This document shows, piece by piece, positions 8,522 through 11,123 of a DNA stretch of 64,000 nt. Under the pieces are notes generated by a model. The model saw only the letters and a list, made by a program, of their open reading frames with translations. It did no database searches and was not told where the DNA came from. The stretch spans positions 65,955 to 129,954 of the forward strand of contig JAJFKB010000001.1 of assembly GCA_021773395.1 (NCBI GenBank), given 5' to 3'. Each line of letters opens with the position of its first letter. Within the stretch, counting starts at the first letter, position 1. The DNA comes from Gammaproteobacteria bacterium (GTDB lineage Bacteria > Pseudomonadota > Gammaproteobacteria > Pseudomonadales > IMCC2047). The translations under genes and the position numbers were made by a program.

Positions 8522-9340
8522 CTAAATAGAAAACTCCACCACCGCAGCGCCGGCACCATAAACGGGCTCATAAGCATGCACCTTGCCACCAGAAAGCTGC
8601 TTGCCAAGCGCGCCCTGTACAAAAGCCATGTGCTTAAAACCCATATCCACCTTCGCTGCCGCAGCATAATCAGGGCATTCAGCGAGCAGAGCTTCGCTAT
8701 CCCCCGCTTCTATCAAAGCTAGTATTTTTTTATTCCAGGTATCGTCCTCTACAGAGGAGATCCTGTCTTCGGAAATATCAATACCATGACGGAAGAACGA
8801 TCCTGACAACCCGCCTACCGCAACGACTGATATTTTTCTTCGCAACCTTTCGGCCTGCTCCGCAACCAGGGCACCAATATCCCGGGTAATCTCCCAGTCG
8901 TGATATAGGTTATTTGAAGTGTTGAGTAACGGTAACCGATTATTCGGATTCAGAAAGTGCGAGGCAACGATCGTTCCGGTATCGATTGGAAACTGATCGT
9001 AATCCACCCCTTTGGACTTAATCCCCTTTTCATTGGCACTGTCGATCGCAGCCTGTGTTAGCTCGGTATCAATACGAATATCAAAGGGCAGGTCGCCAAA
9101 CTCATGCCAGTTATGATCCACGTGAATCCCTTGCAAATGCGGTCGCATCTGCCAAAGCTGGTCTAACACCGCAAACCAGCCCGTAGAATAGACTACGATG
9201 GTATCCGGTTTTGACTCCGCCAAAGCCGCACCTGCCGTCTCCATAGCATCAGCCAAGCGGCCCCAAGGGGGATTATCCGGCTTCATGCATGGCAGAGCGG
9301 AAGCCGGAATCAGAAACGCTGAGACAATAGCCATAGTCAT
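8522..9340 (-). CDS. amnA: 2-aminophenol 1,6-dioxygenase alpha-subunit-like protein (LigB-superfamily, non-catalytic subunit)
   Basis: 272 aa. VVYSTGWFAVLDQ, NWHEFGDLPFDIR, FPIDTGTI, GGLSGSFFR, EDDTWNKKILALIEAGD and VDMGFKH closely resemble AmnA of aminophenol degraders (recalled, not searched). Lies 16 nt downstream of the amnB-like gene. Confidence 0.7.
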   Translation of the reverse strand: MTMAIVSAFLIPASALPCMKPDNPPWGRLADAMETAGAALAESKPDTIVVYSTGWFAVLDQLWQMRPHLQGIHVDHNWHEFGDLPFDIRIDTELTQAAIDSANEKGIKSKGVDYDQFPIDTGTIVASHFLNPNNRLPLLNTSNNLYHDWEITRDIGALVAEQAERLRRKISVVAVGGLSGSFFRHGIDISEDRISSVEDDTWNKKILALIEAGDSEALLAECPDYAAAAKVDMGFKHMAFVQGALGKQLSGGKVHAYEPVYGAGAAVVEFSI

Positions 9341-9356
9341 TCTCCTGCTAGTTGAT

Positions 9357-10277
9357 TTAGGCTATCGCCGTCAGGCCTGAGCCTGCAAGACCAGCCTTGA
9401 TCAAGTTCCATTCCATCACTGCATTACCGGTACCAATGACCGTCCCATAGCCATGCAACTCTCCCGGCATTTCAGGGTAATCCATTGCTGCAAACATCCA
9501 GGTAAAAGCCCCGGATTTTACTTCCGCAAAAGACTCCTCAATAAACTGAGGCAGCAGCCGAAACACTTCTTTCACCTCACCCTTGCGCAATAATTCGATC
9601 ATGCGCATATCCCAAAGGTAACCTTCATAGGTTTCAGGATGCTCCTTGGTCATATCTTCCGGTATTTCAGGTTCTTCTCTGAAGTGGTAATGACAGAGCG
9701 TGTTCGAGGCCAAAAGTACAGCGCGCCGCCCGGTTTTCTCGATGGCTCTTCGCGTCGATTTCCCCAAGCGATCCATCTCCTCCAGTCCCTCTTCCATTTT
9801 TAGATAGTAGGGCGAATTATTGGCAGATATACCCACCACTGGAATATCCCACTGCGGTCGCATCATATGCAGCGTAGTGATGGTTCCGTAATCTACCCGA
9901 AACTTGGGATTACGCATCATCTTTCCGTCCAGACCTAAGGCAATCGCTTCTTCGCAACAGGCCTCTGCCAACTCTACATCCACATCGAGATCGAATGTAT
10001 AGCGAAACAGATTTGGGAAAATCGGATCCACGGATTTACCGCTGAGCTGCTTAACACCTAAAAAATGATGGCCCTGCTCAGTGATCCAGTGGGGCGAATG
10101 CACCAGTAACACATCCGGCTTTAGCTCTTCCAGGCTGGCACGCGCACGTTCATAGGCCCAACGCAACTGCTCCCACCCGCCCCTGGATTTTGGTTCATTC
10201 TGTGGAGGATTTTCTCCGTACACCAAATGCGGTGGATGGGGTGCCAGATATCCGGCAACAATTTCACCTTCACTCAT
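9357..10277 (-). CDS. amnB: 2-aminophenol 1,6-dioxygenase beta-subunit-like class III extradiol dioxygenase
   Basis: 306 aa. [70 protein letters not shown] and [11 protein letters not shown] match AmnB almost block for block from memory. LigB-type fold. Confidence 0.78.
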
Positions 10278-10290
10278 AATCCAACCCTCC

Positions 10291-10725
10291 TCAACTATTT
10301 ACGGCCGTTAAAGGCTTGTAAGCCACCGCCTTCATTTCAATCGCCAAATGTGGATGGGGCAGCTGTGCCACAGCAACGGTGGTTCGAGTCGGGCCTGTTT
10401 TATCAAAATAGTCTGCATAGACCCTGTTAAAGCCGTCGAAGTCATCCATATGCACCAGAAAACAGCTCAGCTCCAATAAATCATCCAGCGAGGCGTCCAT
10501 AGATGCCAGGATATCCGCAATGTTGTTAATCACCGCCCGAGTCTGCACCTCAATATCCATATGCAGAACCCCTGCCGCGTCAACACTTGCTCCCTCGATA
10601 CTGTTATCCGGTCGGCGCGCACTGGTGCCCGATACATAAATAAAATCTCCAGCGCGTTTCACATGGGGAAAACTGCCACGCGGTACCGCTTTATGATCCA
10701 GTACCTTACTCTCTGCACTTTTCAC
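10291..10725 (-). CDS. RidA/YjgF-family protein, 2-aminomuconate-deaminase-like
   Basis: 144 aa. [27 protein letters not shown] ... [26 protein letters not shown]. The RidA fold resembles the RidA-type 2-aminomuconate deaminases (AmnD/NbaF class) as recalled. Confidence 0.72.
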
Positions 10726-10736
10726 TCTTGCACCCC

Positions 10737-11123
10737 TTAGACTTTGTAAAAACTAAATTCTATTTCCACCAGGGCTCCCAGTGGCAACGCAGCCACACCC
10801 AGCGCCGTTCTAGCCGGTGGCTGCACGCCTTCCTCGAAGACCTCCTCCCAGGCACGATTAATTTCCGCAAAATCATCAAAGCAGGTGGTATAAATCCGTG
10901 CGCTAACCATATCCTGCAGTGCCAGACCAAAATCAGGCAGCGCGGCGATCAGGTTCTCTAGAATTTTTCGCGTTTGAAGATAACCGCTGCCCGATTCCAA
11001 ATTACCGCTTAGCACATCCAGCGCAATCATGCCCGCAGTCTGGTAATGAGGGCCGGATCGTATCATCGGACTATACCGAAAACGTGGCATTGGCAGCTTG
11101 TCAGAACTTAGTGCTTCTATCAT
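10737..11123 (-). CDS. RidA/YjgF/UK114-family enamine/imine deaminase-like protein
   Basis: 128 aa with the [21 protein letters not shown]-terminal RidA signature. First gene of a tightly spaced operon (gaps 11, 13 and 16 nt). Confidence 0.72.

Follow-up and report, generated by a model that had tools for sequence, protein, structure and literature searches.

A five-gene amnBA island with a deaminase-fused regulator in a gammaproteobacterial chromosome, and its probable link to catechol meta-cleavage operons elsewhere in the genome

The window analysed here is a stretch of 64,000 nucleotides from the genome of a Gammaproteobacteria bacterium (NCBI GenBank assembly GCA_021773395.1, contig JAJFKB010000001.1). 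It corresponds to C1:65955-129954 of that genome (G000), and feature coordinates are given within the window. It carries a five-gene chromosomal island in which a gene for an IclR-AmnD-fusion regulator is followed by amnJ, amnD, amnB and amnA, the last two encoding a predicted 2-aminophenol 1,6-dioxygenase. The initial annotation had described four tightly spaced open reading frames (ORFs), and their coordinates and intergenic gaps (11, 13 and 16 nt in the order amnJ/amnD/amnB/amnA) match that description; all four lie on the minus strand. A fifth co-directional gene, the regulator fusion at 11364-12524, was missing from it and belongs to the unit. The features of the island and its flanks are as follows.

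11364..12524, minus strand: IclR-family regulator with an AmnD-like RidA domain at its C terminus, 386 aa (Pfam HTH_IclR + IclR_C + Ribonuc_L-PSP)
11222..11249, minus strand: terminator-like hairpin followed by a T-run, 3' of the regulator gene (from a consensus scan only)
11165..11205, minus strand: conserved AT-rich block, candidate promoter/operator (from the alignment of three genus members)
10737..11123, minus strand: amnJ orthologue, 128 aa (Pfam Ribonuc_L-PSP)
10291..10725, minus strand: amnD orthologue, 144 aa, GTG start (Pfam Ribonuc_L-PSP)
9357..10277, minus strand: amnB, catalytic beta subunit, 306 aa (Pfam LigB)
8522..9340, minus strand: amnA, non-catalytic alpha subunit, 272 aa (Pfam LigB)
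7089-8426, flank: DUF1329 gene
5510-7123, flank: gshA
12717-13130, flank: FliL-like gene
13384-13932, flank: dsbB, beyond the FliL-like gene

Boundaries of the island are defined by synteny in relatives. In two other species of the genus (L025, which is G074, and L111, which is G121) the order is fliL, IclR-RidA, amnJ, amnD, amnB, amnA, DUF1329, gshA. The island gene order is also found in a near-identical contig (L024) of a metagenome-assembled genome (MAG) and on the Ensifer adhaerens plasmid pC, and this recurrence indicates that the arrangement is not due to chance. In G289, a member of the same genus without amnB, fliL lies directly next to DUF1329 and then gshA with nothing between, and in three genomes from other genera of the family gshA immediately adjoins fliL. 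The five genes therefore form one island of ~4.3 kb between fliL and DUF1329. This synteny places the DUF1329 gene, earlier described as the transport-associated next gene, outside the island and unrelated to it. The housekeeping nature of the flanks is borne out by gshA, pckA, the FliL-like gene and dsbB. The gshA and DUF1329 ORFs are convergent and overlap by 35 nt (7089-7123).

AmnB is 91-93% identical among the three species of the genus as compared to 69-84% for gshA, and all five island ORFs are intact. Since AmnB is better conserved than gshA, the island appears to be under strong constraint and not a decaying remnant. Horizontal transfer was also considered; the GC content of the island (48.8%) lies within one standard deviation of that of the genome (47.5%) and no flanking repeats were found, so that neither base composition nor repeats point to recent transfer.

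Several lines of comparison identify the dioxygenase as a genuine AmnBA-type 2-aminophenol 1,6-dioxygenase and not another LigB enzyme, in agreement with the initial annotation. AmnB matches the solved 2-aminophenol 1,6-dioxygenase beta subunits 8ihg_A and 3vsg_B with E values of 2.5e-166 and 1.3e-163, while the next non-aminophenol LigB enzyme, HpaD, matches with only 4.7e-06. In a global alignment with CnbCb, 234 of 305 aligned positions are identical (77%). In the Comamonas enzyme (CtAPD), Fe(II) is bound by H13, H62 and E251, with Y129 and H195 in the second sphere (PMC5291488); AmnB residues H14, H63, E252, Y130 and H196 align to these, and 5/5 are kept. AmnA matches the alpha subunit 3vsg_A with an E value of 4.7e-92 and has A, G, T, G and K at the five active-site positions, none of which is kept (0/5), comparable to CnbCa. 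The sizes and order of the subunits also fit AmnBA, with a beta subunit of 306 aa (expected ~305) encoded before an alpha subunit of 272 aa (expected ~271). In a quick AmnB tree, the protein nests among AmnB sequences from complete clusters. Across MAGs of Gamma- and Alphaproteobacteria, Binatia, Myxococcota and Planctomycetota, AmnB identity is 80-86%. The substrate would be expected to be 2-aminophenol or a close substituted analogue.

The presence of two RidA genes had appeared as an oddity of the module; they are instead assigned by sequence as orthologues of amnJ and amnD (2-aminomuconate deaminase), both canonical members of known amn clusters. The 128-aa protein shares 50% identity with the RidA whose gene precedes cnbCb on pCNB1, and 45% with P. 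veronii AmnJ. AmnD-type proteins, which have a longer loop, and AmnJ-type proteins separate cleanly in our alignment A1, where the 128-aa protein falls with the AmnJ type; the Rid arginine is conserved in all proteins of this alignment, AmnJ included. AmnJ of the amnRJBACDFEHG clusters is a YjgF/Rid protein with no assigned function (PMC3790839). The 144-aa protein matches the 2-aminomuconate deaminase structure 6izh (PDB) with an E value of 9.9e-51 and is 65% identical to P. veronii AmnD, and both the extended Lp2 loop insertion and the conserved carboxylate-binding arginine (R114) are present. Arg56, which stabilises the hexamer of AP-3 AmnD (PMC6742747), aligns to Val in the island protein and to Thr in that of Ensifer. 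Loss of this residue would bear on the oligomeric state and not on catalysis.

The fusion gene probably encodes the regulator of the island. Its C-terminal domain shares 51% identity with P. veronii AmnD, and the loop insertion typical of AmnD proteins and the conserved Arg are both present. The same IclR-RidA fusion lies beside amnBA in every readable context (L025, L044, L070, L074, L111, Ensifer pC and Novosphingobium humi), the last two being the only plasmid matches for the fusion among 72,556 records. The three-domain architecture is represented by ~65 clusters in the protein database. The hairpin and T-run between the regulator gene and amnJ suggest a separate promoter for amnJ. The AT-rich block at 11165-11205, situated ~40-80 nt 5' of the amnJ ATG and containing imperfect inverted arms (ATCTAATAT ... 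ATATTTAAGAT), is the only conserved block in the otherwise diverged intergenic region between the regulator gene and amnJ in three genus members (alignment A2). Its exact core is unique in the genome, and we consider the block a candidate promoter/operator of amnJ. The three genus members also share an invariant GTTATTATCG core 5' of the regulator gene, at 12557-12566 (minus strand), which could possibly be an autoregulatory site or an RNA hairpin. The palindrome ATCGGTC-N7-GACCGAT found in the same region was rejected because its sequence is not conserved, only the adjacent GTTATTATCG core being invariant; in G121 a different small inverted repeat takes the place of the palindrome, and in G074 the palindrome is weak. 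A CAGAAYTATTCAG direct repeat is likewise not favoured as the operator since it is not conserved in the two relatives.

The genes for the lower pathway were searched genome-wide with profiles for the semialdehyde dehydrogenase (TIGR03216), the hydratase/decarboxylase (TIGR03220) and the aldolase (TIGR03217). No match was found inside the window with any of the three, and TIGR03220 and TIGR03217 match only contigs C8 and C17, which is consistent with the earlier statement that downstream amnC and amnFEHG are absent in cis; neither amnC nor amnFEHG is present on the contig of the window. The two other contigs each contain a dmp-type phenol/catechol meta-cleavage operon (G000:C8:23658-39739 and G000:C17:10977-31215). 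Both operons encode a catechol 2,3-dioxygenase (TIGR03211, 426 bits, over the cut-off), a DmpC dehydrogenase (TIGR03216, 883 and 888 bits on C8 and C17 against a cut-off of 693), DmpD (hydrolase), DmpE (hydratase), DmpH (decarboxylase), DmpG (aldolase) and DmpF (acetaldehyde dehydrogenase). Phenol-hydroxylase genes and a DmpR/MobR-type sigma-54 activator are additionally present on C8. The two operons are 78-83% identical in DNA, which indicates real paralogues and not an assembly duplicate, and each DmpC is ~59% identical to AmnC and CnbD. The module had been called orphan. This holds in cis, but with two complete lower-pathway sets in the genome it is split and not truly orphan; the sets lie on other contigs and not immediately outside the window, and no operator shared with the island was found.

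In both operons a GlcG-like gene of 145 aa lies between the catechol 2,3-dioxygenase and DmpC genes. A LigB and aldehyde dehydrogenase pair ~38 kb upstream of the window was considered and rejected, as it is part of a homoprotocatechuate (hpa) cluster unrelated to the island. This hpa meta-cleavage cluster (C1:25740-31380), the one cluster of comparable type on the contig of the window, is complete, with HpaD_Fe, HpaE, two HpaF-like isomerases, HpaI, HpaG and HpaR.

Co-occurrence of amnB with a TIGR03216-class dehydrogenase was analysed in samples of related genomes. Among 301 genomes of the order, amnB is present in 7 and the dehydrogenase in 28; the latter is found in 6/7 amnB-positive genomes as compared to 22/294 (7.5%) of those without amnB. 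Within the family, the three genomes with amnB are exactly the three which have DmpC and catechol 2,3-dioxygenase, and G289 (83% complete) has none of the three. Five MAG genomes with amnBA and no amnC in cis contain exactly one dehydrogenase each, which in the same-contig cases (4/5) is located 0.5-1.4 Mb from amnBA. A sample of 400 genomes of the class added two further amnB-positive genomes, both with the dehydrogenase on another contig. In total, 12/13 of the AmnB-positive genomes tested have a dehydrogenase of this class, 3 in cis and 9 in trans. In three other loci (L045, L058 and L026) amnBA adjoins an operon with catechol 2,3-dioxygenase and DmpC and there is no separate amnC; L045 and L026 also contain an amnD-like gene.

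The arrangement of amnBA without amnC in cis is recurrent in nature and not peculiar to the window. We collected 80 amnB loci from species-representative genomes, taking amnC as present in cis when an AmnC-like gene lies within 10 kb and as absent when at least 7 kb on both sides contain none; 30 of the loci were too short to judge. Of the 50 assessable loci, 24 have an AmnC-like gene in cis and 26 do not. An AmnD-like gene is present in 15/26 loci without amnC. An AmnJ-like gene is present in only 1/26 of these, as compared to 6/24 with amnC, and among loci without amnC in cis it is confined to the clade of the window. Both architectures are interleaved on the quick AmnB tree, where well-supported branches force at least nine changes.

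Some of the collected loci contain recurring gene sets of their own. Ten loci from uncultured Gammaproteobacteria (L038, L041, L046, L050, L052, L055, L060, L073, L077 and L078) have a conserved set directly 5' of amnD-amnBA, ~2-8 kb 5' of amnB. Its members are a CarAa-like Rieske oxygenase (PF11723), two reductases (one of the pyridine-nucleotide-disulphide type and one flavodoxin-like), a BphC-like extradiol dioxygenase and an alpha/beta hydrolase, which suggests an angular-dioxygenation route yielding an aminophenol. In eight others (L028, L032, L040, L054, L056, L067, L072 and L101), with neither amnC nor amnD nearby, a co-directional PF04199 "cyclase" gene ends ~50-200 nt before amnB; PF04199 is the kynurenine formamidase/isatin hydrolase family, which hints at hydrolysis of an N-acyl or lactam precursor to the aminophenol. 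In alphaproteobacterial loci, a single open frame of ~1030 aa (L048:15622-18708, L051:15574-18687 and L100:15548-18658; shorter in L074:8086-10086) combines a branched-chain-type ABC permease domain, an AmnA-like LigB domain (~50% identical to AmnA) and an esterase domain. It is located ~5 kb downstream of amnBA beside ABC ATPase genes and is possibly a transporter-dioxygenase-subunit fusion, with misassembly or sequencing error as an alternative. On a Novosphingobium humi plasmid (L115, NZ_CP117418.1 740267-759130), a single IclR-RidA fusion regulator lies between two amnBA pairs, only one of which is followed by a dehydrogenase gene, two hydratase/decarboxylase-family genes and amnD.

In our best reading, to which we assign a probability of roughly 0.6, the island is an upper module that feeds the resident catechol meta-cleavage pathway in trans. 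AmnBA, as an Fe(II) extradiol dioxygenase, would open the ring of 2-aminophenol, or of a closely related substituted compound, to give 2-aminomuconic 6-semialdehyde, which would be oxidised to 2-aminomuconate by DmpC from the C8 or C17 operon. AmnD would then release ammonia to give 4-oxalocrotonate, and DmpH, DmpE, DmpG and DmpF would take this to pyruvate and acetyl-CoA. The fused regulator would probably sense a pathway intermediate through its deaminase-derived domain and act at the AT-rich site 5' of amnJ. The strongest internal argument is the presence of AmnD and of an AmnD-derived regulator domain, which implies that 2-aminomuconate is formed and hence that a dehydrogenase is needed. 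The dmp pathway has among its intermediates 4-oxalocrotonate, the product of AmnD. For AmnC, 2-hydroxymuconic semialdehyde serves as a substitute substrate (bioRxiv 10.1101/2021.07.15.452591), suggesting that the AmnC and DmpC types of dehydrogenase share their chemistry.

Several points weigh against this reading. The reading presupposes that DmpC accepts 2-aminomuconic semialdehyde. This semialdehyde cyclises to picolinate with a half-life of ~35 s (bioRxiv 10.1101/2021.07.15.452591), so that a dehydrogenase acting in trans must be co-expressed with the island, but no shared operator or sigma-54 site between the island and the dmp operons was found in the genome, and the dmp operons have their own phenol-responsive activator. 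Rapid cyclisation, with no shared operator found, makes some leakage to picolinate likely. Shared regulation with the dmp operons was not retained, as no second copy of the conserved amnJ-promoter motifs exists in the genome; on C8, the dmpR/phenol-hydroxylase intergenic region matches the left arm with one mismatch, but this match has no extension and looks like chance. One amnB-positive genome (G204, 90% complete, 570 contigs) yielded no TIGR03216 dehydrogenase, and, related genomes being non-independent, the co-occurrence rests on about six or seven lineages. A link to kynurenine could not be shown in the genome, where one kynureninase is encoded on C26 but its aldehyde dehydrogenase neighbour is a succinate-semialdehyde dehydrogenase.

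It is conceivable, though unlikely, that a Rid protein, most plausibly AmnJ, deaminates 2-aminomuconic semialdehyde directly to 2-hydroxymuconic semialdehyde and thereby makes the route independent of AmnC. The product would be the native substrate of the DmpC and DmpD branches, both of which are encoded by both dmp operons, and AmnJ retains the conserved Rid arginine. There is a precedent in the 4-amino-3-hydroxybenzoate pathway of strain 10d, where a Rid/YjgF-type deaminase is reported to act on 2-amino-5-carboxymuconic 6-semialdehyde (cited in PMC6449761). As described there, strain 10d resembles the island in aminophenol-type ring cleavage and in a deaminase feeding the enzymes of 2-hydroxymuconic semialdehyde. 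It differs in that deamination of the semialdehyde precedes its oxidation, and in its dioxygenase and substrate. However, AmnJ is normally found alongside AmnC in canonical clusters (LB400, CNB-1, P. veronii and Ensifer), which argues against AmnJ as a replacement for AmnC, and the counts of AmnJ-like genes given above (1/26 amnC-less loci as compared to 6/24 with amnC) point the same way. Moreover, the presence of AmnD still implies 2-aminomuconate.

The initial annotation had favoured a picolinate-type product among its suggestions. With no dedicated dehydrogenase, spontaneous cyclisation of the semialdehyde would turn toxic aminophenols into picolinate-type compounds. Such a picolinate-forming or detoxifying module draws support from the half-life of ~35 s, from the conversion of part of the 2-aminophenol to picolinate in LB400 in spite of amnC in cis (PMC3790839), and from the absence both of amnC in cis and of a detected regulatory link to dmp. 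We nevertheless regard it as slightly less probable even than direct deamination, and picolinate as an unlikely selected end product. It leaves no role for AmnD, since the one substrate known for this enzyme depends on the dehydrogenase step, or for the AmnD-derived regulator domain; picolinate formation requires no Rid proteins; and a TIGR03216-class dehydrogenase is retained in almost every AmnB-positive genome tested. Very improbable is the view of the island as a decaying remnant, without current function, of a once complete amn operon. Absence of amnC and amnFEHG in cis, and the existence of full versions with the same head such as that of Ensifer pC, would agree with it, but none of the five ORFs is disrupted in three species that share 91-93% identity in AmnB and only ~70% in housekeeping proteins, all catalytic residues are kept, the promoter block is conserved, and the AmnB tree has amnC-less modules at nine or more separate positions. 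A broader proposal, which we hold only as a long shot, takes the amnC-less amnBA modules, in most cases accompanied by amnD and in this genus also by amnJ and a sensor regulator derived from a deaminase, as a widespread, strongly conserved adaptor through which natural o-aminophenols enter resident catechol meta-cleavage pathways; the semialdehyde deaminase that makes the route independent of AmnC could then be AmnJ. If true, this would point to an unrecognised natural pool of aminophenols in marine and sediment habitats and not to a xenobiotic niche.

Returning to the upper module feeding a resident pathway in trans, we compared the island with known systems. The characterised layout is amnRJBACDFEHG, in which AmnR is a MarR-type regulator (PMC3790839). 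Operons of this type in Burkholderia xenovorans LB400 and its relatives (Pseudomonas sp. AP-3, P. putida HS12, P. knackmussii B13 and the cnb cluster of Comamonas CNB-1) share orthologous amnJ, amnB, amnA and amnD with the island. Also common are the order of the beta and alpha subunits, a Rid gene directly 5' of amnB, the same catalytic residues and a product that would be expected to enter a 4-oxalocrotonate lower pathway. Unlike these operons, the island has no amnC and amnFEHG in cis, its amnD is placed between amnJ and amnB, and its regulator is an IclR-AmnD fusion in place of the MarR-type AmnR. It is situated on the chromosome between housekeeping genes with no signs of mobile elements, and its lower pathway would be borrowed from the dmp operons. 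Plasmid pC of Ensifer adhaerens M8 (NZ_CP098810.1; annotated, uncharacterised) has the same head of IclR-RidA fusion, RidA, RidA, amnB and amnA, but differs in that genes for the dehydrogenase, hydratase, acetaldehyde dehydrogenase, aldolase and decarboxylase follow in cis, that a nitroreductase and an amidase are encoded close by, and that the regulator is divergently transcribed. The dmp/xyl catechol pathway (DmpBCDEFGHI type) has 4-oxalocrotonate in common with the proposed route, and its DmpC, ~59% identical to AmnC/CnbD, belongs to the same NCBIfam family TIGR03216. It differs in that its native ring-cleavage substrate is catechol and its activator is of the sigma-54 DmpR type; use of aminomuconic semialdehyde by its dehydrogenase is our inference.

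The island is thus most likely a streamlined, differently regulated variant of the known 2-aminophenol pathway and not a new pathway. The 2-aminophenol pathway is usually portrayed as a self-contained xenobiotic operon in a small number of soil isolates. In this genome and in roughly half of the environmental loci that could be assessed, only the ring-cleavage step stays clustered, in some cases joined by the deamination step. For annotation, this means that an "orphan" amnBA should not be called picolinate synthesis before the whole genome has been checked. The island also offers a concrete setting in which functions could be assigned to AmnJ and to the IclR-AmnD fusion regulator. That a catechol-type semialdehyde dehydrogenase is nearly always encoded elsewhere in such genomes suggests a modular design, in which an amn adaptor is combined with a shared meta-cleavage trunk, and such a design predicts that DmpC accepts aminomuconic semialdehyde.

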